A stretch of DNA of 32,000 nt from Candidatus Saccharimonadota bacterium (GTDB taxonomy: Archaea > Nanobdellota > Nanobdellia > Pacearchaeales > GW2011-AR1). Location of the stretch: assembly GCA_041659445.1 (NCBI GenBank), contig JBAZYG010000002.1, forward strand, positions 1 to 32,000, in the 5' to 3' direction. Of the stretch, positions 19,138-31,671 are shown piece after piece. Position numbers and translations under genes: made by a program. Below the pieces are notes generated by a model. It saw nothing but the letters and a program-made list of their open reading frames with translations. It was not told the DNA's origin and did not search any database. Position 1 is the first letter of the stretch. Every line of letters begins with the position of its first letter.

Positions 19138-19260
19138 ATGCTTTTAAAAAAATGTTCAAACAAGAATTGTAATTCTTACACATTCAAAGAAAATTGTCCA
19201 AAATGTTCTTCACAAACAAAAGATGCACATTATAAGTTTATAAAAATTAAAAAAGATTAA
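19138..19260 (+). CDS. nop10: Mini Nop10-like zinc-ribbon protein (40 aa), not in the ORF track
   Basis: Hand translation gives MLLKKCSNKNCNSYTFKENCPKCSSQTKDAHYKFIKIKKD*. This matches the archaeal Nop10 ribbon pattern KC..C..YT.KE.CP.C...T...H..(K/R)F. It sits downstream of aIF2-alpha. Confidence 0.6.
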   Translation: MLLKKCSNKNCNSYTFKENCPKCSSQTKDAHYKFIKIKKD

Positions 19261-19592
19261 ATATTTTTTCTCAAAAATTTAGATAAATCTTTTTTAAGAC
19301 AAATATCTCCCTTAAGAGATTCCAATTCATACTCTTTTAATAGGAAATTTTCAAATCTTCCCTTAAAAACTTCTGGAACACCATTAATTAATTCAAAATG
19401 GTTTACAGTTTTTCCAAAACAAGCTCCTTTTAAATAATTCTCTAAAGAAGATACATCCACAGAATCTACAATATATGGCTTAATTTCTACTTCAGAATTT
19501 TCAATAGTATGATAAATAAAAAATTCTGTTTCAGATAATCTTCCTTTATCTAAAGATTTTCCAAAATAAACAATTTCATGTGGCTTTTTCAT
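19257..19592 (-). CDS. Hypothetical protein
   Basis: 111 aa clean ORF. Shares a 40-bp upstream sequence with the next gene. No family recognised. Confidence 0.55.
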   Translation of the reverse strand: MKKPHEIVYFGKSLDKGRLSETEFFIYHTIENSEVEIKPYIVDSVDVSSLENYLKGACFGKTVNHFELINGVPEVFKGRFENFLLKEYELESLKGDICLKKDLSKFLRKNI

Positions 19593-19674: not shown

Positions 19675-20520
19675 TTAATTTTTCATCAATCCAAGAATTC
19701 TATCTTGATAATTTTTTAAACAAGACAAATCTTTTTCTTCTAAAGGATTTTCAATTAATAAATCAATTCCTCTTTTAAAATTCAAATCTAAAATTGGTTT
19801 CACTAAATAAAAACCAGTGCTGTAAAGATAATACTTATTTAAAGAATCAGTACACAACAAAGTGTCTTTATCAATAAATTTTGCAGTAAATGGAATTTCA
19901 CCCTTACATGAAATATATTCTGCAACACCCTCTAAAACAACATCATAAAGATAACACTGTTTAACATTTTTTTCATTTACATCTTTAAAAATATTTTTTG
20001 CATTTAACTCATTGCTTCTCATATCATAAAAATAATGCCCTGCTTCATGTTTGATATAATAATGAATTCTTTCTTCAAGAACATCTTTAAAATTAGGATA
20101 ATATTTTTTATAAAAATTTTTATACTTTTCAAACATTTCTTCAGAAGGATTTGAAGTAAATGAAATTATTTTATTGTCATCATAAAGATATTCTGCACCT
20201 TCACATTCAAAGAAATTTAAATTTTGAACTTTATTAAAAGTATATTTTGGGAGTTTTTTAGTTATTTTAAAAAAAGAATAAACATCAGAAATATCTTTTT
20301 CAAAATTACTGTCAACGAAATTTCTAACAAAAAGAGAATATTCTTGAACATTACTAAAAGGAAAAATATCTTTCTCTAAAACATTTGGTAAATTATTCCT
20401 ATAGATTTCCTCATTTAAATGTATGATTTGGCTTTCTTTTTTAGAATTTGAATTGAAAAAAGAATTTGAACATGAAAAAATTAAAGGAAAAATAAAAAAA
20501 CCAAGCAATGACCTCTTCAT
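19675..20520 (-). CDS. Putative secreted or lipid-anchored zinc metallopeptidase (HExxH)
   Basis: 281 aa. Signal peptide ends in a lipobox-like LIFSC. An HEAGH motif (YIKHEAGHYFYD) is present. No finer family recognised. Confidence 0.5.
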   Translation of the reverse strand: MKRSLLGFFIFPLIFSCSNSFFNSNSKKESQIIHLNEEIYRNNLPNVLEKDIFPFSNVQEYSLFVRNFVDSNFEKDISDVYSFFKITKKLPKYTFNKVQNLNFFECEGAEYLYDDNKIISFTSNPSEEMFEKYKNFYKKYYPNFKDVLEERIHYYIKHEAGHYFYDMRSNELNAKNIFKDVNEKNVKQCYLYDVVLEGVAEYISCKGEIPFTAKFIDKDTLLCTDSLNKYYLYSTGFYLVKPILDLNFKRGIDLLIENPLEEKDLSCLKNYQDRILGLMKN

Positions 20521-22552: not shown

Positions 22553-23029
22553 ATGGAAGAAATGCAAAATAAAACACATTATATTGCAGTTACAGGAATA
22601 ATCCGAAATTCAGACGGAAAATACTTAATTTGTAAAAGAAGTCCAAATGAAAAAAACTTTCCAAACAAATGGTGTGTTCCAGGAGGAAAAGTAGAAATAA
22701 AAGATTTTATTGAAACTCCAAAAGATACTAGCTATCATTGGCTAAATATTTTTGAAAGAGTTTTAATAAGAGAAATAAAAGAAGAAACAAATTTAGAAAT
22801 ACAAAATATTGGATATGTTTCAAACTTAGCTTTCATAAGACCAAATGGATTTTCAACAATAATTATAAGCCTTTTTGCAGAACATAAAAGTGGAGAAGTA
22901 AAACTAGACGAAGATGAATTAATTGAACACGCATGGGTGACTTTAGAAGAAATAAAAAATTATGATTTAATAGAAAATATATTTGAACAAATTGAAAAAG
23001 TCCATAAAATATTTAATAATAAAAATTAA
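22553..23029 (+). CDS. NUDIX hydrolase (with an insertion inside the Nudix box)
   Basis: 158 aa. GGKVE...ERVLIREIKEETNLEI. The REUxEE core is intact, and about 11 extra residues sit between the G-x5-E and RE elements. Confidence 0.75.
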   Translation: MEEMQNKTHYIAVTGIIRNSDGKYLICKRSPNEKNFPNKWCVPGGKVEIKDFIETPKDTSYHWLNIFERVLIREIKEETNLEIQNIGYVSNLAFIRPNGFSTIIISLFAEHKSGEVKLDEDELIEHAWVTLEEIKNYDLIENIFEQIEKVHKIFNNKN

Positions 23030-23331
23030 TTGCTATCTTTTAAAATTTCTTCTAATTTTTTAATATCTTTATCAACTTCAGAAACTCCATTTTGAACCAA
23101 AATTTTTAAACGAATTATTTCTTTTTCAAGAATTTCTTTAAATACAGATGAATCTGAACTAATTATTTTATTCTCGAATTTTTTATTTTTTAGAACCCAT
23201 TCAGGAACATCATCGTGTATTGTTCTAGATATATAGTTTGTATAAGAAATATTAGCATTTTCAAATTCTAAAAAATATCTAGTTTTTGAATTAAAACTTT
23301 TTTCATCAGGACGTTCAATTAAATATTTCAT
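23026..23331 (-). CDS. Hypothetical protein, gene 8 of the radA operon
   Basis: 101 aa with a coiled-coil-like C-terminus. ATG lies 8 nt after the upstream stop. Confidence 0.55.
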   Translation of the reverse strand: MKYLIERPDEKSFNSKTRYFLEFENANISYTNYISRTIHDDVPEWVLKNKKFENKIISSDSSVFKEILEKEIIRLKILVQNGVSEVDKDIKKLEEILKDSN

Positions 23332-23339
23332 TTTTTATT

Positions 23340-23540
23340 TTAATTATATTTTGAAGGAGTGCAAAGTTCACACCATTTTTCAGGCATTGAACTATTAATT
23401 TTAATTATATTGAATGGCTTTTCCAATTCAAATTTTAATTTGAATTCTTTAAGTTGATTTAAACAAACAGAATACATTTCAGAAGCATAAATATCAGAAG
23501 GATTTTCAAATTTTACAATCACTGCTAAATTATTTGTCAT
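23340..23540 (-). CDS. Hypothetical small protein, gene 7 of the radA operon
   Basis: 66 aa. ATG lies 6 nt after the upstream stop (TAAAATAAAATG). Ends in ...YN*, like the preceding gene. Confidence 0.5.
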   Translation of the reverse strand: MTNNLAVIVKFENPSDIYASEMYSVCLNQLKEFKLKFELEKPFNIIKINSSMPEKWCELCTPSKYN

Positions 23541-23546
23541 TTTATT

Positions 23547-23738
23547 TTAATTATATCTTCTATAAATTGAATCTTTACTTCTTCTAAATTGAATATAATT
23601 AAGTTCCTTCGAAATTCCACCTACTTCAGATTTATTTCTTTCAAGTTCTTCATTATTTTGAATTTTAAAATTATTTTTAATATCTGCTGATAAAGAAGAT
23701 TCTCCACTTGCAACTTTTATTCCTATGTTCTTTGTCAT
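23547..23738 (-). CDS. Hypothetical small protein, gene 6 of the radA operon
   Basis: 63 aa, polar and probably disordered. TAAAATG junction with the upstream gene. Confidence 0.45.
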   Translation of the reverse strand: MTKNIGIKVASGESSLSADIKNNFKIQNNEELERNKSEVGGISKELNYIQFRRSKDSIYRRYN

Positions 23739-23739
23739 T

Positions 23740-24015
23740 TTATTCTGAATTATTTATAAGTTTTTCAATACTCTGTAGATTATTTTTAATTTCTGTTCTA
23801 AAACTTTTTTCTCTATCTTCTTTAGGAAGACAAGCCCTAAGTTCATTTTCATATTGCCATACTCGAGATTTTTCTTGCAAACAGCAAACCCAACTTAAAA
23901 ATTCTCTTGATTTATCAGACAAGTTTAAAGGTATCAGCCCTTGACTAGATACATAAGGACATTTTTCTAAATAAGGACATGCTTCAGCTTTTCCATATAA
24001 ACAATCTTTTGTCAT
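23740..24015 (-). CDS. Cys-rich hypothetical protein, gene 5 of the radA operon
   Basis: The ORF-track start at 24030 is a TTG. The first ATG at 24015 gives a 91-aa product beginning MTKDCLYGKAEACPYLEKCPYV (C-x7-C-x5-C), later WVCC and RAC. TAAAATG junction. Confidence 0.55.
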   Translation of the reverse strand: MTKDCLYGKAEACPYLEKCPYVSSQGLIPLNLSDKSREFLSWVCCLQEKSRVWQYENELRACLPKEDREKSFRTEIKNNLQSIEKLINNSE

Positions 24016-24016
24016 T

Positions 24017-24259
24017 TTAATTATTCTCAAGATTATTCTTTATTTTTATAGAATCAGATAATATTTCTTTTAAATCAGAGTCATTTTTCGTTAAGATGTA
24101 TTCCAACATTCCTTTCATTTCAGAATTAGTCATAAAATTATCCAAACCAGGATTTTCATTATAAATCTTATGTGCTTCAAAATAATTTTCAGTTTCAAAA
24201 GCAGGTTTAAATTTATCTTGATATATTTTTTCTAATTCTTCAGTTAAATTTTTTTCCAT
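24017..24259 (-). CDS. Hypothetical helical protein, gene 4 of the radA operon
   Basis: The ORF-track start at 24283 is a TTG. The first ATG at 24259 gives an 80-aa product beginning MEKNLTEELEKIY. TAAAATG junction with the upstream gene. Confidence 0.5.
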   Translation of the reverse strand: MEKNLTEELEKIYQDKFKPAFETENYFEAHKIYNENPGLDNFMTNSEMKGMLEYILTKNDSDLKEILSDSIKIKNNLENN

Positions 24260-24260
24260 T

Positions 24261-24650
24261 TTATTCTTTATCTCTAAGACCAACTTTTTTAAAAAGATTC
24301 ATCATTTTATCTTTAAGATAATCATAATTAGGTGCACCAATACGATTAATTACAAATGGTTTAATAATTTCATTTTGTTTTTCTAAATTATATCTACAGT
24401 GATACAAATAATGGTCTTCCTCATTAAAATAAATTGTACAAACTCCTTTGTTATTATTAAATTTTTCAAAAAATACTTTCCAACATTTCCAAGCAGGCAC
24501 ATTTTGTTTAGAAAGAGGGTATACCTCTTTGTACTCTTCCTGTGGATTTATTACAACCTCAAATCTATTATTGATTAGAACAATATCATGAGGGTTAACT
24601 TTTTTTAAATCATTAATTTCTTCAATAACCTTAACATTTATTGTTTTCAT
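24261..24650 (-). CDS. Hypothetical protein, gene 3 of the radA operon; paralog of 25690-26049
   Basis: 129 aa. N-terminal ~55 aa resemble the 119-aa protein upstream of radA: VKVIEEINDLKKV / LKIISNYSELRNV, FEVVINP..EEYKE / LEFVFNP..EEYKN, VYPLS / IYTLS. Confidence 0.6.
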   Translation of the reverse strand: MKTINVKVIEEINDLKKVNPHDIVLINNRFEVVINPQEEYKEVYPLSKQNVPAWKCWKVFFEKFNNNKGVCTIYFNEEDHYLYHCRYNLEKQNEIIKPFVINRIGAPNYDYLKDKMMNLFKKVGLRDKE

Positions 24651-24652
24651 TT

Positions 24653-25687
24653 TTATTCTTTATCTTTCAAACCTTCTGTTGTAACAAAATACACACATTC
24701 ATTATCTGGAAGATTTGGACTATCAATTAATTTTGCAACTCTCGAGCCTTGTTTTCCTCTTCTTAAATATAATCTATAAGTTGAAGCATGCCCGACGATA
24801 TTTCCACCAATAGCAGTTGTTGGGTCTCCAAACATTTGTGCTGGATTTGCCATAACTTGATTTGTAACATAAACCACAATGTTATAAGTTTCAGCTAGTT
24901 TCATCAAGTCGTGCATATAACGATTTAATTTTTGCTGTCTATCTGCTAATTGTCCTCTTCCTGCATATTCTGCTCTGAAATGTGCTGTTAAAGAATCTAT
25001 AATTAACAATTTAATTGGTTCTCCTGCTTTAATCATTTCTGAAATTTTTTCTAATAACAACATTTGATGATCAGAATTAAAAGCTCTTGCAACAAGAATA
25101 TTTTTCAAAACACTATCAGCATCTGCACCAATTCCCTCTGCAAATTGTTTTATTCTCGCAGGTCTAAAAGTTCCTTCTGTATCAATGAAAACGCATTTTC
25201 CTTCTGCACCACCTTGCTCTTTAGGTAATTGAACATTAACAGCCAGAGCCAAACCAAGCTGTGTTTTTCCTGAACCAAAAGCACCAAAAGCTTCTGTTAT
25301 AGCTCTAGACTCCACTCCTTTTCCTCCCAGAAGTTCATTCAAATTTTTGCTTCCTGTAGTAATATAATTTACATTCATTCTTTTCTTTGCAAATTCTAAT
25401 CCATCTGTAAAACCTAAATCCAACATACCTCTAGCAGCTTGAATAGCTTTTCTTGCAACAGCAGGGCTTACACCAGCAGCATCAGCAATTGAAGCAGGAC
25501 TAGCAACAGCCAAAGACATTAAATCTAAAATTCCTGCACTTTCAAGTTTAGCAGCAACAGCAGGTCCAATTCCAGGCAAGTCTGTTAATTCAAGTTCTTT
25601 GCTTGATTTTTCTTTTTTTCCTTTCTTAGACTTTTCAATTTCTTCTTCGTCTTCAAGTTCCTCTTCAACTTTATCTTTTTTTGTCAT
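24653..25687 (-). CDS. radA: DNA repair and recombination protein RadA
   Basis: 344 aa. Charged N-terminal tail and HhH domain (LTDLPGIGPAVAAKLESAG). Walker A GAFGSGKTQ, Walker B LLIIDS, then VYVTNQV and GGNIVGHAST. Confidence 0.95.
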   Translation of the reverse strand: MTKKDKVEEELEDEEEIEKSKKGKKEKSSKELELTDLPGIGPAVAAKLESAGILDLMSLAVASPASIADAAGVSPAVARKAIQAARGMLDLGFTDGLEFAKKRMNVNYITTGSKNLNELLGGKGVESRAITEAFGAFGSGKTQLGLALAVNVQLPKEQGGAEGKCVFIDTEGTFRPARIKQFAEGIGADADSVLKNILVARAFNSDHQMLLLEKISEMIKAGEPIKLLIIDSLTAHFRAEYAGRGQLADRQQKLNRYMHDLMKLAETYNIVVYVTNQVMANPAQMFGDPTTAIGGNIVGHASTYRLYLRRGKQGSRVAKLIDSPNLPDNECVYFVTTEGLKDKE

Positions 25688-25689
25688 TT

Positions 25690-26049
25690 TTATTTAATTA
25701 AACCTCCTTCTCTTGCAAGATTGTAAAGTTCAGTTAATTCTCCAGACATAGATTCTTTAGGGCAAAGATAAAAAGAATGTTTCTTTTTTGGATTTAAATA
25801 TTCTTTTTCCCAATCTGGTTCAGGATTATCCAAATATATCACATATTCATTTTCAACTAAGAAATTGCCTTCAAGTGAAAGAGTATAAATATTTTGATGT
25901 CGATTTTTGTATTCTTCACTATTTGGGTTAAGAAGTATGGGATTAAAAACAAACTCCAACCCTCTTCCAAGAACAGAAATAAATTCTCCAATGCATACAT
26001 TTCTAAGTTCAGAATAATTAGAAATAATTTTCAAGGACTTTTTTCTCAT
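25690..26049 (-). CDS. Hypothetical protein, first gene of the radA operon; paralog of 24261-24650
   Basis: 119 aa. TATA-like TTTATAAAG (26078-26070) lies 20 nt upstream of the ATG. The stop is 2 nt before the radA ATG. Confidence 0.6.
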   Translation of the reverse strand: MRKKSLKIISNYSELRNVCIGEFISVLGRGLEFVFNPILLNPNSEEYKNRHQNIYTLSLEGNFLVENEYVIYLDNPEPDWEKEYLNPKKKHSFYLCPKESMSGELTELYNLAREGGLIK

Positions 26050-26102
26050 ATTTTATTCAAAGAAAATCCCTTTATAAATTTTATAATTCTCTAGAATATA
26101 GA

Positions 26103-26558
26103 TTAAAACATATATATTTTATAAAAAATCAACAAAAAATCCATAATTAAAAACAAAATAAAAATCAAAAATTCTAATTTTCCTCCAGTTTTTATGAAAC
26201 CATGGAACTTTAATTTCAAAGGCCAAAAAACATAAATTCCAGTTTTAGTAAAACTATCAAAAATTAAATGACTTCCATAACCAATTAAAAATCCAAAAGC
26301 AATAAAAGGTTTCCAAAAATATAAAAAAATGCAAATCAAAATCAAAAAACTAAAACTATGAAAAACTCCCCTATGTGTAAAAAACAATTGAAAGATTCTA
26401 AAAATTTTCTTTTTTCCAATTTTTGAAAATTTTGTGTCAATATCTGGAATAAAACAAGAAATCAAAACAATAAAAAGGAAAATAATTTTATTCTCAAAAA
26501 ATTTCATAAATAAAAGTCCAAAAAACAAAGCAATTATAAAATGTGTTCTTAAATACAT
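26103..26558 (-). CDS. Membrane-bound metal-dependent hydrolase, YdjM/DUF457 family
   Basis: 151 aa polytopic membrane protein. Motifs: THFIIA at the N-terminus, IPDIDT, HRGVFHS, GYGSHLIFDSFTKTG. Confidence 0.75.
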   Translation of the reverse strand: MYLRTHFIIALFFGLLFMKFFENKIIFLFIVLISCFIPDIDTKFSKIGKKKIFRIFQLFFTHRGVFHSFSFLILICIFLYFWKPFIAFGFLIGYGSHLIFDSFTKTGIYVFWPLKLKFHGFIKTGGKLEFLIFILFLIMDFLLIFYKIYMF

Positions 26559-26589: not shown

Positions 26590-27366
26590 TTAGCTTTTAA
26601 AATTTTGCGAGTTCGCGACTTCGTCGCTCACAAAAACCACCCGACCATTGCCGCCAATAGAAATACGCAAGCCATCGTAGTTGGAATACACATCCTCACG
26701 AAGATTAGCATACACTCTAGACAAATCCTTTTTTTTTGTCCAAAGATTCTTCTCAACATTTCCTAATTCATTTTTGAATTGAATTTTCTTTTTTCCAAAA
26801 GCAAATCTTTCATCATTTTCAAGAATTGAATCTTCTCTGAGTTTTAATAAAAGTCCATAAAAATTATTTGAATTATTATCGCTAACTAAATCTATATTTT
26901 GCATAATTAAAGGATTTTTTGGAGAAAAACTTTTTCCTCTTGATTTAACTTGCTTAACTAAATCCTCTAAAATATGTTTGTTATTATTCCAAGAAAGTTC
27001 TTCACTTCTCAAACACAAATTTATTGTATCAGAATAATGATTGTCAAAGAAATTTTCATCATAACTATAAATCTTTCCTAAGTCATTTAAATCCATAACT
27101 CTTCCATTAATTCCTTGTTCTTTGAAAAAATTATTCAAATAATTATTCCAAAAAAATTGAGAACCTGTTAATTCTTTAAAATCAATTCCATTTGTTAAAG
27201 ATTTTATTGCTTTAGAATTTTCTTTAAAATCTTTTTCTATTTTTTCTTTTGCTTGATTGTAAACTTCTTTGGGATTAAAACCTAAAACACTTTCAGCTTC
27301 TGGAGCTATTACTATTGCTTTTGGATATTTTATTAATCTAGGTTTAAATTCAACATAATTTACCAT
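26590..27366 (-). CDS. Uncharacterised protein, paralog B of 4300-5064
   Basis: 258 aa. See 4300-5064. The last ~45 codons use GC-rich codons (GGC GGC, CGG, GCG, TCG, CGT) that are atypical for this window. Confidence 0.8.
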   Translation of the reverse strand: MVNYVEFKPRLIKYPKAIVIAPEAESVLGFNPKEVYNQAKEKIEKDFKENSKAIKSLTNGIDFKELTGSQFFWNNYLNNFFKEQGINGRVMDLNDLGKIYSYDENFFDNHYSDTINLCLRSEELSWNNNKHILEDLVKQVKSRGKSFSPKNPLIMQNIDLVSDNNSNNFYGLLLKLREDSILENDERFAFGKKKIQFKNELGNVEKNLWTKKKDLSRVYANLREDVYSNYDGLRISIGGNGRVVFVSDEVANSQNFKS

Positions 27367-27430: not shown

Positions 27431-28354
27431 TTAATTTTCTAATTCATCAATTAATTTATCCAAATTAATTTCTTCTATTTTTTCTATGATGAATTCAGAA
27501 TTATTGAAATAACTATTTTTTCTAACACTTCCAACAAAAATCATTTCTTTACCCAAAATATTTTCTTTCTCTTGGTTAAGAAGCAAAGGATTTTCAACAT
27601 TTTTAATACCTAATTCTTTAACTGTTTCATGAAACAAAACAGCTCTAATTGTATCTTGTCCGTCGTCCAAAACAATATTTAAAATCGCTCTTTTTTCAAC
27701 ATCATTTTTATTAACATTGTCTGTTTCCAATATTTTCTTTCCTGTTTTTTTATTAACCTCAAAGAATCTTGGATCAAAAACCTGAACAATAAATGCTCTT
27801 GTTTTAGCAAAATCACCAATTGAAAATTCAGAAAGAGGTTTCTCTTTAGATTCTCTTTCTAATTTTACATTCTTAATGACTTCTGAACTTAATTTTAATT
27901 CTGAAAAACTACCTAAATGAATTTCATTATCTCTCATGTTTCCACCAGAAATTTCAATATTTGAACCTGCAACAACTTCACCTTTTTCAATTAAAGAAAT
28001 ATGATTTGTGTCCCATAAAACAACTTTAATATTTGCTGTTTCATCGGCAATAAATAAATTTGCAACTTTTCCAGAATCTCCTTTCTTAGTTTTAAATTCC
28101 CTAACAGGAGAAATCGTGATTATTTTTCCTAGCAAGTTTATTTTTCTCATTCCAGGCAAAAGTTCATTAATTTTCAATTTTTCATCTTCAAAAGAAATCC
28201 CTAATTCTGCAGCAATTATTTGTAATGCTCCCTCTTTACTTATTAAACCAGAAAGTTTAGAACGTTTTGCTTCAACTCTTTTTTCTAATTCTCCTTTACC
28301 AATTCCTGAAGACCTTTCAATTCTCTCTAAAATCTTATCATAGTTTCCATTCAT
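27431..28354 (-). CDS. Replication protein A-like ssDNA-binding protein (two OB folds)
   Basis: 307 aa. The N-terminal helical module ends LSGLISKEGALQIIAAELGI. Two OB-like repeats follow (KINLLGKIITISPVREFKTKKGDSGKVANLFIADETANIKVVLWD; AFIVQVFDP...ILNIVLDDGQDTIRAVLF). Confidence 0.7.
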   Translation of the reverse strand: MNGNYDKILERIERSSGIGKGELEKRVEAKRSKLSGLISKEGALQIIAAELGISFEDEKLKINELLPGMRKINLLGKIITISPVREFKTKKGDSGKVANLFIADETANIKVVLWDTNHISLIEKGEVVAGSNIEISGGNMRDNEIHLGSFSELKLSSEVIKNVKLERESKEKPLSEFSIGDFAKTRAFIVQVFDPRFFEVNKKTGKKILETDNVNKNDVEKRAILNIVLDDGQDTIRAVLFHETVKELGIKNVENPLLLNQEKENILGKEMIFVGSVRKNSYFNNSEFIIEKIEEINLDKLIDELEN

Positions 28355-28777: not shown

Positions 28778-29437
28778 ATGGAATTTTCATCAGAACAATT
28801 ACAACAAATAAAAGAACAATTAATCTCTCAAATAAATTCTTCATTTCCAGAAGACAAAAAACAAGAATACCTTTCTCAAATAGAAAATATGAATGAAGAA
28901 GAATTAATTTATTTTTTAGAGCAAAACAATTTAATAAAAACAGATTCAGAGGATTTAAATGATTCAAATAATTCACCTCAAAGAAATTGTGTTTTTTGTT
29001 CAATTGTCTTTGGAGATATTCCTTCGACTAAGATAAATGAAAACGAATCTGCAATTGCAATATTAGAATTAAATCCAATTTCAGAGGGTCACGCTTTAAT
29101 TGTTCCAAAAAAACATCTTAACAATGAAAATGAAATTGAAGATTCAACAAGAGACTTAGCAGAGATTGTTTCTGAACAATTAAAAAACATATTTAATCCA
29201 AAAAAAATAGAAATAATTCCTGGAGAAGTAATGGGACATATCATTCTGAATATTTTACCTATTTATGAAAAAGAAACAATAAATTCACCTAGAAAAAAGA
29301 AAAACCTAGAAGAATTAAAAGAGTTACAAGATAAAATTTTAAAACCACATTCAGAAAAAAAACCTATTGAAATTGAAAAACCAAAAAAAATAGAAATTTC
29401 AGATAAACAATTCAAACTTCCAAGAAGAATTCCTTAA
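28778..29437 (+). CDS. HIT-family protein with degenerate histidine triad and N-terminal extension
   Basis: 219 aa. HIT core is NCVFCSIVFGDIPSTKINENESAIAILELNPISEGHALIVPKKH. The triad position reads GHIILNILP instead of HxHxHxx. Confidence 0.7.
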   Translation: MEFSSEQLQQIKEQLISQINSSFPEDKKQEYLSQIENMNEEELIYFLEQNNLIKTDSEDLNDSNNSPQRNCVFCSIVFGDIPSTKINENESAIAILELNPISEGHALIVPKKHLNNENEIEDSTRDLAEIVSEQLKNIFNPKKIEIIPGEVMGHIILNILPIYEKETINSPRKKKNLEELKELQDKILKPHSEKKPIEIEKPKKIEISDKQFKLPRRIP

Positions 29438-30285
29438 AAAATCCAAAAATTCATTAAACCAGTTTTTATTAAAATTATCCAAAGCAAAAACGCTATTAAA
29501 AAAACAGGAGCAAAAGCAACTCCAAATCTAATTAAAATTTTTTTCTTGTGCAATTGAATTATTTTTATTTCTTCTTTAGTCAAACCACTCCAATTCGCTT
29601 TAATTAATTTTTTACCAATTTTAATATCAGAATGAAGCCAATCTCCTTCAGTTAAATTTCCAGAAAAAACTGATTTAACCATACAAGAATTATCAACTGC
29701 TTTAACATAAACTAACAAATAAGCAATTAATAAACAAAACAAAGCTAAAATAAAAAAAGGTTTTGAAAAAAATCCTAAAATTAAAAAGATAATTCCTAAA
29801 AGCGTCATCAAAATCAAAAATCTTTTATGAATTATAAATTCTTTTTTGAATGACTTTTTGAAATTAATAAAATTTTTTATACTTAAAACAAAAATAGAAA
29901 TTAATAAATAAATAAAACCTGCTGCAAAAAAGCATGCTAAGAATAAAAGCATTATTTTAAAGTTTGAAGAAATTAATGAATAAATAGGTAAAATTGTCCC
30001 TAGAGCAACAAATAACCTATAATCTCCTCCTGCAAAAAACCTTGAATAATATAAAGCATTTCCCAAAACAAAAAATATTGCTAAACCAATTAAACCATTA
30101 TAAAAAAAATTTATTTCACTAAAACTCTCTCCTGAAAATAATGTATAAAAAAATCTAAAACCTAAAATAAAAATAATCAAAGAATAATTAATCCAACTAT
30201 CAATTTCTCTTTTTTTAATATCTTGAATTAAAGCTAATAAAATCCAAATAAATCCAAAAACTAATAAAATTATTATTTCAAGCAT
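29434..30285 (-). CDS. Type IV prepilin/preflagellin peptidase (A24 aspartic peptidase family)
   Basis: 283 aa polytopic membrane protein. First Asp motif is IQDIKKREIDSW, second is FFAGGDYRLFVALG (GxGD-like). Sits beside pilin-like genes. Confidence 0.75.
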   Translation of the reverse strand: MLEIIILLVFGFIWILLALIQDIKKREIDSWINYSLIIFILGFRFFYTLFSGESFSEINFFYNGLIGLAIFFVLGNALYYSRFFAGGDYRLFVALGTILPIYSLISSNFKIMLLFLACFFAAGFIYLLISIFVLSIKNFINFKKSFKKEFIIHKRFLILMTLLGIIFLILGFFSKPFFILALFCLLIAYLLVYVKAVDNSCMVKSVFSGNLTEGDWLHSDIKIGKKLIKANWSGLTKEEIKIIQLHKKKILIRFGVAFAPVFLIAFLLWIILIKTGLMNFWIF

Positions 30286-30447: not shown

Positions 30448-30897
30448 TTATTCAATTGAAACAATACATCTCTCAGAGTCTTGTAAACCAGTAACTAATG
30501 CACTAACATCATATCCTGCTTCTTGAGAATTAACAACCCCGATTTGATTATTTATTTTAACTTGACTACAAGATAAACCACAATCAATATCACAAGGATT
30601 TACACTATAAATTTCAAATTCACTTAATCCTGCTAAAACATAACAACTTGTTTTTACTTTATTTCCTTCTCCATCTTTTATATCTCTTTGAGTATTACAA
30701 AAGTCATATTTACTTTGAATAGAACAAGCAGAATCACAAGTATTCACAACATTATCAACGTTACTTGATTTAATAAAAGGTGCAACTTTATCCCAACCCA
30801 TTGTAAAACCAAGAATTAAAACAACTAAAACAATAAGTCCTAATATCAATAAAATTATTGTATTAGTACTCATACTTTGACCTCTTTTGTTATTCAT
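30448..30897 (-). CDS. Archaeal type IV pilin-like protein, Cys-rich
   Basis: 149 aa. Class III signal MNNKRG|QSMSTNTIILLILGLIVLVVLILGF (KRG-Q cleavage-type motif then a hydrophobic helix). The ectodomain has 8 Cys. Confidence 0.6.
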   Translation of the reverse strand: MNNKRGQSMSTNTIILLILGLIVLVVLILGFTMGWDKVAPFIKSSNVDNVVNTCDSACSIQSKYDFCNTQRDIKDGEGNKVKTSCYVLAGLSEFEIYSVNPCDIDCGLSCSQVKINNQIGVVNSQEAGYDVSALVTGLQDSERCIVSIE

Positions 30898-30934
30898 AAT
30901 TAAATCAAGTTAAATTTATTTATAAATCTTATTA

Positions 30935-31345
30935 TTAGTTAAATGAGTATTCTAAAACATACTGAACATTTTTCTCTTCAATTTTTTCTGAAAAAAAGTC
31001 TTTTAATTTATTAAAAAAAGATTCTGGTTTAATTTTAGATATTTTAATTGTTTTTAAATTTTCATTAAAAGAAATTTCAAAAGAATATCCTTCATTTTCC
31101 AGAACTGAAAAATCTATCTTGCTTAAAATTTGGTCATTACTTAAATTCAAATTTTCATAATGTTCCCATTGGTCAACATAAATATTCATTGCTCTAATAT
31201 CATCTACAACTAAAAAAGAATTATTAAATTTAAATTGCGAAACAAAAAAAGTGATTAATGCAAAAGTACAAAGTGCGAATATTCCTATAACTAAAATTGT
31301 AATTGGAACACTTGCTTTTTTTGAGATTATTTTTCTATTTTTCAT
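30935..31345 (-). CDS. Pilin-like N-terminally anchored protein
   Basis: 136 aa. MKNRKIISKKA|SVPITILVIGIFALCTFALITFFV. Its ATG overlaps the upstream stop (ATGA). Confidence 0.5.
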   Translation of the reverse strand: MKNRKIISKKASVPITILVIGIFALCTFALITFFVSQFKFNNSFLVVDDIRAMNIYVDQWEHYENLNLSNDQILSKIDFSVLENEGYSFEISFNENLKTIKISKIKPESFFNKLKDFFSEKIEEKNVQYVLEYSFN

Positions 31346-31671
31346 TTTAAATTATTTATAACTGCATCAATATCTGCAGGATTTTCTTTTTCATTCTCCC
31401 ATTTTTTTAAATTATTATAAATTTCATTTTTAATTGTGGGATTTCCAATTGAGGAATATACATAAATTGATTTCATTAAAATCAAATTCCCATGTGAAGA
31501 AATTTCATCAGAAAAAACACCTTGCTTAGCAGTTATGAGAGTTTTACCCTCTGATAAAAGAGATGTTGCAAAAACAAATAAAAATAAAACCACTAGAATT
31601 ACTACTGTTGCAATTATCCAACTAATAGTATCTCCTACTTGAGCAGTTTTATTTTTTTTATAATTTAACAT
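31342..31671 (-). CDS. Pilin-like N-terminally anchored protein
   Basis: 109 aa. MLNYKKNKTA|QVGDTISWIIATVVILVVLFLFVFA. Confidence 0.5.
   Translation of the reverse strand: MLNYKKNKTAQVGDTISWIIATVVILVVLFLFVFATSLLSEGKTLITAKQGVFSDEISSHGNLILMKSIYVYSSIGNPTIKNEIYNNLKKWENEKENPADIDAVINNLK

Follow-up and report, generated by a model that had tools for sequence, protein, structure and literature searches.

The question raised by this locus is why the gene of the archaeal recombinase RadA stands as the second of eight closely spaced genes, the other seven of which encode small proteins. The locus lies within the first 32,000 nucleotides (nt) of contig JBAZYG010000002.1, read on the forward strand, and this whole stretch of DNA is referred to here as the window. 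The source organism is represented by a metagenome-assembled genome (MAG) of Candidatus Pacearchaeota, a Pacearchaeota-type DPANN archaeon; the same proteins are present in an NCBI Candidatus Pacearchaeota MAG (locus tags WC812_03535-03580), as well as in ENA and Logan contigs. An initial annotation, made from the sequence alone, had read the cluster as a single operon and had suggested that its small products form a lineage-specific accessory module of the recombinase. The eight ATG-started open reading frames (ORFs) span 26049-23026 on the minus strand and encode, in this order, 119, 344, 129, 80, 91, 63, 66, and 101 amino acids (aa). The small ORFs are named here by their lengths, and famA denotes the family of g119 and g129.

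25690-26049, minus strand: g119, first cistron, a famA member; small protein encoded upstream of radA
24653-25687, minus strand: radA, second cistron, 344 aa; archaeal strand-exchange recombinase with a helix-hairpin-helix domain and a Rad51/RecA ATPase core
24261-24650, minus strand: g129, divergent second famA copy 3' of radA; opens the lineage-specific insert
24017-24259, minus strand: g80, acidic 80-aa ORF without relatives; contains FKPA; strong TATA-like match at -34
23740-24015, minus strand: g91, Cys-rich 91-aa ORF without relatives (C-x7-C-x5-C...CC...C)
23547-23738, minus strand: g63, hydrophilic 63-aa ORF without relatives
23340-23540, minus strand: g66, 66-aa ORF without relatives; C-terminal CxxC; weak TATA-like match at -26
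23026-23331, minus strand: g101, last cistron; member of a six-protein family normally encoded directly 3' of radA

The comparison with related genomes shows the operon to be, as far as sequence can tell, a mosaic of three layers, namely a first cistron of the famA family behind a captured promoter, an old 3' partner (g101), and a recent five-gene insert. The best explanation overall, which we hold with modest confidence, is that of a housekeeping radA unit gaining small genes on both sides through the mechanism outlined below. The comparison set consists of 80 radA loci from GTDB species representatives, whose RadA proteins are 67-90% identical to that of the window; L-numbers are labels of related loci or contigs, and P-numbers of related proteins. 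The protein-family libraries scanned were Pfam, NCBIfam, PHROGs, and PADLOC, and the large searches comprised a word-indexed search of 5.8 billion proteins and a full HMMER profile search of 1.84 billion cluster representatives.

The eight ORFs are real genes, tiling the coding strand far beyond chance. The window has a G+C content of about 25%, so that stop codons are frequent; in the cluster, 99.3% of the coding strand is taken up by ATG ORFs of 60 aa or more, versus a mean of 1.5% and a maximum of 16% in 1000 dinucleotide-preserving shuffles. For g80, g91, g63, and g66, the four ORFs without relatives, the coverage is 99.1% versus 0.9% (maximum 43%), and none of the 1000 shuffles reaches 99.1%. 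The codon-usage score is the best of six frames in the annotated frame of all eight ORFs, with values of 0.31-0.64 bits/codon in the cluster versus 0.49 +/- 0.09 for host genes. We take the ORFs as real because the tiling exceeds that of every shuffle and because the codon usage is host-like. The successive spacers from g119 to g101 are 2, 2, 1, 1, 1, 6, and 8 nt, and the junctions read, in order, TAAAAATG twice (TAA-AA-ATG at the g119/radA boundary), TAAAATG three times, then TAAAATAAAATG and TAAAATAAAAAATG; the stop of g101 overlaps a convergent NUDIX gene by 4 nt. The initial annotation had described this layout correctly, from the coordinates, strand, and lengths of the ORFs to their spacers of 1-8 nt and junction sequences, the longer TTG-started ORFs (24017-24283 and 23740-24030) with the ATG starts at 24259 and 24015, and the Cys pattern of g91 (C5-x7-C13-x5-C19, followed by C44, C45, and C62).

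The promoter signals indicate that one transcript probably covers all eight genes as a single operon. Of the 27 window genes that went into the promoter matrix, 13 carry a TATA box of the TTTAAAWA type whose first base is exactly at -29 from the ATG, and in five others it is at -27 or -30. This fixed position implies that the window genes probably have leaderless mRNAs with roughly one promoter per gene. Within the cluster, a position weight matrix (PWM) built from the window sites finds a -29 TATA box only before g119.

26070-26078, minus strand: TATA box TTTATAAAG, an 8-mer starting at -29 from the g119 ATG, PWM score 7.0
26096-26103, minus strand: ATCTATAT, a degenerate copy of the ATATATAT box, seen in promoter alignments; overlaps the YdjM stop codon

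It had been claimed at the outset that the only well-placed TATA-like box precedes the first gene, and that the cluster is one transcription unit; the PWM scan agrees with the former and, given the -29 boxes of 13 of the 27 window genes, the cluster does look like the latter. What speaks against a single transcript are the off-position PWM hits at -34 before g80 (8.7), at -26 before g66 (6.0), and at -22 before g63, as well as the runs of five to six T within g119, g129, and g101, because of which internal transcription starts or stops are possible.

The radA gene has no TATA box near -29 in the PWM scan. The 60 nt ahead of g119 share homology with the stretch that precedes radA in relatives without a 5' ORF, as well as with the one that precedes famA in relatives that carry famA. 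The region aligns, for example, with the sequence upstream of radA in L001, the closest GTDB relative by identity of the RPA protein (72%), including a box at -54. The common pattern is aATATATAtt, about 12 nt, AAATAATCTTTATAAA, 21 nt, and the ATG. By this homology to the radA promoter of the relatives, g119 is shown to sit between the ancestral radA promoter and radA, and the radA of the window depends on the promoter ahead of g119. A -29 TATA box stands directly before radA, behind a spacer of 40-100 nt, in about 58 of the 80 relatives (radA has its own TATA box together with coupled 3' ORFs in 20 loci), and in about 15 radA is without a -29 TATA box of its own and has instead a coupled small ORF on its 5' side.

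The ATATATAT box is found at -54/-53 in the radA promoters of this clade. An ATATATA(T) box occurs in 19 of 63 radA promoters versus 20 of 848 other genes with their own promoter, and most of these 20 are small ORFs just 5' of radA. It lies at about -54, some 17 nt 5' of the B recognition element (BRE)/TATA pair, in the radA/famA promoters of L001, L005, L006, L017, L026, L031, L043, L053, L092, L094, and L096. The box may be a putative binding site for a radA-specific regulator.

Termination-reinitiation is known to work over short stop-start distances and to be nearly abolished at about 20 nt (PMC10666635, PMC6728339), and the same-strand distances at all seven junctions are short enough for it. 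The window resembles the gene pairs of those studies in the shared strand, the very short stop-start distances, and the promoterless downstream cistrons. It differs from them in its dominant spacing, which here and throughout the clade is +1 (TAAAATG) and equals the usual -4 overlap in frequency, and in the length of the chain. In the 80 related loci, 93 gene pairs have the +1 spacer versus 95 with the -4 overlap, TAAAATG being found 71 times; the stereotyped TAAAATG junction is common across the clade and not peculiar to the operon of the window. Coupling as such occurs genome-wide in the related loci, at 428 of 1233 same-strand gene pairs. With seven consecutive couplings, the window holds the longest coupled chain among 81 radA loci, one ORF 5' and six ORFs 3' of radA being the extreme case, and the next-longest chains have three ORFs 3' of radA (L005) or one 5' and two 3' (L006).

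Motifs resembling the Shine-Dalgarno sequence are enriched about three-fold before coupled genes of the clade (25% versus 7-8% of controls). In the window, the final codons of g119 contain a GGAGG (25705-25709), encoded by the conserved Gly-Gly of famA, 16 nt ahead of the radA start. Across the family, the codons of the C-terminal Gly-Gly(-Leu) read GGAGG, GGGGG, or AGAGG and lie 8-17 nt ahead of the radA ATG, with equivalent GGAGG-type sites in L006, L011, L092, and L098; these codons may be constrained both as protein and as ribosome-binding site.

A separate observation concerns the gene tails that precede two pairs of junctions.

24651-24683 versus 24260-24292 and 23541-23573 versus 23332-23364, minus strand: junction-tail similarity, 30-nt tail comparison

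The last 30 nt of radA and g129 match at 22 positions, placing 1st among the 861 pairs of window genes; the tails of g63 and g66 agree at 18 (5th). Much of this similarity is explained by the shared GGL/K-E-rich C-termini together with the junction itself. The repeats could be a trace of cassette addition at the junctions, or a convergence on sequence that favors reinitiation. Their interpretation as attachment (att) sites was rejected, an unrelated gene pair also scoring 22/30.

The famA family groups g119 with ORFs immediately 5' of radA in L006, L011, and L043, while g129 joins through L043. The word-indexed search returned only g119, g129, and the ORFs of these three loci. The HMMER search with a famA profile, built from five seed sequences including g129, gave 21 hits, of which 20 are small proteins of 104-152 aa and the remaining one, a 1351-aa repeat protein, is probably spurious. 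The E-value of g129 against this profile is 1.9e-35, g129 itself being one of the seeds, and its membership is established independently by P0017, which matches g129 at E 3e-7, and by P0013, which matches both g119 and g129. A direct BLASTP comparison of g119 with g129 gives only E 0.27; linked through the profile and intermediate sequences, the two are distant paralogs of one family on sequence criteria. The family, with typical lengths of about 110-130 aa, is known only from this clade; a 105-aa ORF in L004 matches it marginally (E 0.003).

In 13 of 13 contexts checked (window, L006, L011, L043, L091, L092/93, L094/95, L096/97, L098, L104, L105, L106), famA lies immediately 5' of radA on the same strand, overlapping it or at most 2 nt away. 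The RadA proteins of these lineages are 70-89% identical, and the gene 5' of famA varies, being YdjM, RPA, a 175-aa ORF, or a 105-aa ORF. Second copies of famA are also found beside radA, as a tandem pair before it in L091 and with one copy on each side in the window. The alignment of 20 famA sequences has one invariant and six near-invariant positions (T56, I9, L15, I26, E32, Y69, P87) and a conserved C-terminal GGL. The AlphaFold2 model is a confident alpha/beta structure, with a predicted local distance difference test score (pLDDT) of 89.6 and a predicted template modeling (TM) score of 0.83. Foldseek finds no match to it in the PDB (best E 0.25, TM <=0.32) or in BFVD, and there is no sequence-profile match in the PDB either.

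The protein g101 groups with ORFs directly 3' of radA in L016 and L055, and the large database search adds three more sequences, making six members. The closest one, P0010, is a g101 ortholog with 62% identity; on eight contigs (L083-L090), 2 nt separate its start from the radA stop, and its junction with radA, GATAAAGAATAAAAATG, is identical to the radA/g129 junction of the window. The organism of L083/L085 has a RadA 92-96% identical and an RPA 64% identical to those of the window, and its gene order is RPA, a 108-aa ORF without detected similarity to window proteins, radA, and the g101 ortholog; YdjM, g119, g129, g80, g91, g63, and g66 are all absent. In L016 and L055, too, the gene next to radA on its 3' side is of the g101 family, at a distance of 15 nt and 93 nt, respectively, and in L100 a member is the second 3' gene. 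The L099 contig shows no radA, only about 300 nt lying upstream of its g101-family gene. In L084 (JGI 3300025117, 158-1702), which belongs to the organism with the 62%-identical ortholog, the gene call is a RadA of 514 aa whose N terminus is much extended and which weakly matches NAGPA of Pfam; this could be a fusion or a gene-call artefact.

The AlphaFold2 model of g101 (pLDDT 86.4) consists of a small beta-sheet followed by two long helices forming a hairpin, and has neither a fold match (Foldseek best E 2.3) nor a significant profile match in the PDB. According to these models, both famA and g101 would have confident folds that match no PDB structure. Profile and structure searches of the small proteins, which had been proposed along with the initial annotation, have yielded two families but no PDB analog for either; a published description of the famA or g101 families was likewise not found in the literature on radA-linked small proteins of DPANN archaea. 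A common origin of all radA-flanking families in one fast-diverging superfamily was considered and rejected, since the hhalign probabilities are at most 1.2%, with the sole exception of a 107-aa family (L010, L012, L033) against a 110-aa family (22%).

Because radA is followed directly by the g101 ortholog in L083/L085, where g129 is missing, the g129-g66 block (24650-23340) is shown, on comparative grounds, to be a lineage-specific insert of five genes that splits an older radA-g101 pair. Four of the five genes, g80, g91, g63, and g66, have no homolog in the 80 related radA loci by tblastn or phmmer and form singleton clusters at 90% identity. The search of 5.8 billion proteins with g91 (E up to 1) returned only g91 itself, and the viral contigs gave nothing; for g80, nothing was found in JGI metagenome contigs or in the four libraries of hidden Markov models. 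Some apparent relatives were discarded: the viral-contig match of g63 consists of short word matches inside an unrelated 912-aa protein, the metagenome match of g66 is a word match inside an unrelated 236-aa protein, and the g63/g66 candidates in L101-L103 are 8-residue seed matches inside large unrelated proteins. The initial annotation had recognized no family among the seven small products, and none of them has a match in Pfam, NCBIfam, or PHROGs. Paralogy among the small ORFs was not detected by Smith-Waterman alignment with shuffles (maximum z 2.5 over 66 pairs, none significant).

The PADLOC defence models match none of the other seven cluster proteins, and for g91 there are weak matches with three models of PDC-S31, a defence candidate (best E 2e-4, 19 bits; residues 15-74); these matches are probably compositional, and no partner genes are present. 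As for Rad51-binding motifs of the BRC/FxxA type, no conserved FxxA is found in famA or g101, and the FKPA at residues 16-19 of g80, which has the FxxA form, is a single motif in one relative-less protein and within chance. Since the four genes sit in a recent insert and have no ortholog, they are more likely young passengers of the radA transcript than RadA cofactors.

The 344-aa protein itself is by all sequence criteria a true RadA, as had been recognized initially. It matches Pfam Rad51 at 4.9e-91 (residues 102-342) and HHH_5 (residues 32-86), and scores 458.5 bits with NCBIfam NF003301 (cut-off 259) and 438.8 bits with TIGR02236 (cut-off 361), while the Dmc1, Rad51, and RadB models of NCBIfam are all below their cut-offs. 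The Walker A (GSGKTQ) and Walker B (LLIIDS) motifs are readable in the translation. The conserved frame around radA in the relatives consists of EF-1beta on the opposite strand, an RPA-like protein of about 310 aa, often YdjM, radA, a variable slot, and often a convergent gene of about 150 aa. The corresponding neighbors in the window are as follows.

27431-28354, minus strand: RPA-like, replication factor A homolog, 307 aa; conserved upstream neighbor of radA
26590-27366, minus strand: g258, 258 aa, between RPA and YdjM; own -29 TATA box; singleton cluster
26103-26558, minus strand: YdjM-family membrane hydrolase, Pfam YdjM 74 bits; between RPA and radA in most relatives
22553-23029, plus strand: NUDIX hydrolase, Pfam NUDIX 59 bits; convergent, closes the variable slot 3' of radA

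The RPA-like protein matches the replication factor A of PDB entry 8aaj at E 3e-20 and a Pfam OB fold, and it is below the cut-offs of all NCBIfam RFA models (best 96 bits versus 442). It is present in 68 of the 80 related loci, and it is this single-stranded DNA (ssDNA)-binding protein, not the small ORFs, that is the conserved functional neighbor of radA. YdjM is found in about 47-50 loci, and RPA, YdjM, and RadA form a conserved same-strand neighborhood in most of the 80 species. The E. coli ydjM gene is regulated by LexA as part of the SOS response, and by analogy a DNA-damage link for the archaeal YdjM may be worth a look. No homolog of g258 is found by tblastn or phmmer in any of the 80 loci, which means that relative-less genes have also been inserted elsewhere in the locus and not only beside radA. 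Many relatives have a convergent gene of about 150 aa behind the radA unit, but its sequence homology to the NUDIX gene of the window is confirmed in only 2-9 loci.

The mechanism that we propose for the growing radA unit starts with the ancestral radA promoter, i.e., the ATATATA box followed by a BRE/TATA pair starting at -29, which now stands in front of g119. From it, a polycistronic leaderless mRNA g119-radA-g129-g80-g91-g63-g66-g101 would be made, and each downstream cistron would be translated by termination-reinitiation at its junction of 1-8 nt, with possible help to radA translation from the GGAGG 16 nt ahead of it. The famA and g101 proteins would be optional, fast-evolving products made in step with RadA, and their most likely target would be RadA itself or the RPA-ssDNA-RadA hand-over, where they would load or modulate the filament. 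The four relative-less genes would use the radA transcript and its coupling signals for their expression.

Small genes co-transcribed with a recombinase gene are familiar from bacterial recA operons, namely recA-recX and, in Gram-positives, cinA-recA, and these offer the nearest parallel to the window. By analogy, the g101 family is placed like recX on the 3' side and famA like cinA on the 5' side, and the tight junctions would tie their expression to the recombinase. However, the recombinase of the window is an archaeal RadA, from another domain of life, and partners of the window type are found in only a minority of the related species. Neither famA nor g101 has a Pfam or NCBIfam match, their best Foldseek E-values in the PDB being 0.25 and 2.3; with respect to RecX in particular, no small ORF matches the family in Pfam or NCBIfam at E <=1, and no PDB match of the g101 model falls below E 2.3. 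In phage T4, gp32, UvsY, and UvsX constitute a system of single-stranded DNA-binding protein (SSB), mediator, and recombinase, and the order RPA ... famA-radA similarly puts a protein of about 115 aa between SSB-type and recombinase genes, as would be expected of a mediator, a parallel that may be no deeper than gene order. Unlike in T4, YdjM is usually found between RPA and famA, and famA has no similarity to UvsY or to any viral fold in BFVD. In archaea, further RadA paralogs, aRadC/SsoRal, have been proposed as mediators. The RadA paralog RadB has likewise been proposed as a mediator in Haloferax (PMC5480776). A role in helping or tuning the formation of RadA filaments on RPA-coated ssDNA might be shared with these proteins, but RadB and aRadC have RecA-fold ATPase domains, whereas famA and g101 are much smaller, and none of the seven small ORFs matches the RecA, Rad51, KaiC, or AAA models of Pfam and NCBIfam.

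A RadA-related role of famA and g101, analogous to cinA-recA-recX with folds that are unrelated and apparently new, is suggested by position only, and for this part of the explanation we lean slightly to the negative. The accessory-module idea of the initial annotation survives to this extent for the two families, but the seven small proteins are not one module. On its 3' side, radA has a coupled small ORF in 21 of 78 cases, and on its 5' side in 15 of 79; in the same loci, the corresponding counts are 9/68 and 0/67 for RPA, 1/47 and 1/45 for YdjM, and 0/29 and 1/35 for a TIGR00375-family gene, i.e., 12/291 when pooled, so that the radA flanks are enriched about five-fold. Members of famA and of the 107-aa family are seen on both the 5' and the 3' side of radA and, within the data, never away from it. 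The bolder version, according to which famA and the g101 family are new archaeal RadA-specific mediators or filament regulators, the first in DPANN that are not RadA paralogs, and the radA promoter and leader are a recurrent capture site at which unrelated small genes come, time and again, between the promoter of a leaderless gene and its start codon, is a tentative and doubtful one.

Several findings weigh against such a role. The famA gene is present in only 3-4 of the 80 species representatives, and most related species are without the small families. In 40 of the 80 loci, radA is apparently monocistronic, with its own -29 TATA box and nothing coupled on the 3' side. L001 has the order RPA-YdjM-radA-convergent NUDIX with no small ORF at all, which implies that RadA can function without any of the small genes. 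Behind the radA promoter, the 5' slot is occupied by no fewer than four kinds of ORF unrelated in sequence (famA, the 107-aa family, an 82-aa ORF in L016, and a 197-aa ORF in L019), and the genes that come first on the 3' side of radA are of mixed types, membrane proteins among them. All contexts of famA are from a single clade with conserved RPA-(YdjM)-radA synteny, and the famA-radA adjacency could be simple inheritance. The famA and g101 folds resemble no known recombinase partner in the PDB, or in BFVD in the case of famA. Finally, crude ratios of nonsynonymous to synonymous substitution rates (dN/dS) are 0.60 for g101 and about 1.0 for famA, versus 0.07 for RadA, 0.16-0.26 for RPA, and 0.42 for YdjM, although dS is unreliable at a third-position G+C content of about 0.1; such values are no proof of purifying selection, on which a comparison of orthologs had been suggested as a check.

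The main rival explanation is that the small proteins have no connection with RadA and that the locus is only a landing pad, a permissive site with a strong conserved promoter and TAA-A-ATG coupling where small genes are inserted, duplicated, and lost, their adjacency being kept by vertical inheritance. Unrelated families in the same slots, a bare radA in half of the relatives, a closest GTDB relative without small ORFs, the high dN/dS of the small genes, the insertion of g258 elsewhere in the locus, and the 428 coupled pairs among 1233 would all fit. Against it stand the position of famA, immediately 5' of radA in all 13 contexts over RadA identities of 70-89% and with differing other neighbors, the occurrence of famA and the 107-aa family on either side of radA and nowhere else within the data, and the five-fold enrichment at the radA flanks over those of neighboring conserved genes; we consider this explanation possible but rather unlikely. 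Far less probable is the reading of the initial annotation, in which all eight genes form one recombinase module with seven small accessory or regulatory subunits of RadA, and which the comparative data largely refute. A conserved gene set and order is what one would expect of it, but the set and order are kept in no relative: g80, g91, g63, and g66 occur in none of the 80, radA looks monocistronic in 40, and L001 lacks all of the small genes. Four members are without homologs, the g129-g66 block is an insert into an older radA-g101 pair, and junctions of this type are widespread in the clade. Unidirectional gene pairs at short distances are indeed enriched for subunits of heteromeric complexes (PMC10666635), which would favor this reading, as would the single canonical promoter and the tight coupling; on sequence comparison, however, the eight genes taken together are no conserved module.

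Two further alternatives concern only the 3' part. The block from g129 to g66, or to g101, would be a remnant of a virus, a plasmid, or a defence/anti-defence island at the 3' end of radA if its dense small relative-less genes, typical of mobile elements, its radA/g129 (22/30) and g63/g66 (18/30) tails, reminiscent of degenerate flanking repeats, and the weak PDC-S31 match of g91 (E 2e-4) were given weight. There is, however, no integrase, hallmark gene, or PHROG match below E 0.01, the G+C content and codon usage are those of the host, and g129 belongs to a resident radA-linked family. The viral contigs contain nothing for g91 and only a spurious match for g63 (g80, g66, and g129 were not scanned), and the tail similarity is tied by an unrelated pair and largely accounted for by the C-termini and the junction. 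A viral, mobile-element, or defence origin, for which PHROGs, IMG/VR, BFVD, and PADLOC give nothing credible, is thus highly improbable. Even less credence is due to the idea that g80, g91, g63, and g66 are not genes but decayed sequence that stays open, for example a degenerate second radA. The lack of homologs, the size of the region (920 nt versus 1035 nt for radA), and its place behind the second famA copy, as expected of a duplicated famA-radA unit, are compatible with it. But RadA finds no collinear matches in the six-frame translation (tblastn, best E 1.8), on which basis a decayed second radA was rejected, and four tiled ATG ORFs were obtained in 0 of 1000 shuffles, with in-frame codon usage that is host-like and the best of six frames.

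Two observations were made elsewhere in the window. The upstream regions of the adjacent minus-strand genes 19257-19592 and 19675-20520 are identical at 44 of 51 nt, including the TATA box, which suggests a duplicated promoter or a paralogous gene pair. Beside the gene of a prepilin-type Peptidase_A24 (29434-30285), there are small same-strand ORFs without Pfam match at 30448-31671 and beyond (L081, 1666-3816), which may encode pilin-like substrates.

DPANN genomes are stripped down, and few RadA partners besides the RadA paralogs are, to our knowledge, known in archaeal recombination. The famA and g101 families, two small protein families with confidently predicted folds that are found only as cistrons fused to radA in this way, are candidate modulators of the recombinase. 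The comparison also shows how operons may grow in a leaderless genome with a promoter for each gene: new small genes come to lie behind a conserved promoter, ahead of the gene that it serves, or are appended at a TAA-A-ATG junction, and would then be expressed by coupling. If the small genes are mere passengers, the locus would be a clean example of rapid lineage-specific gene turnover around an essential gene.

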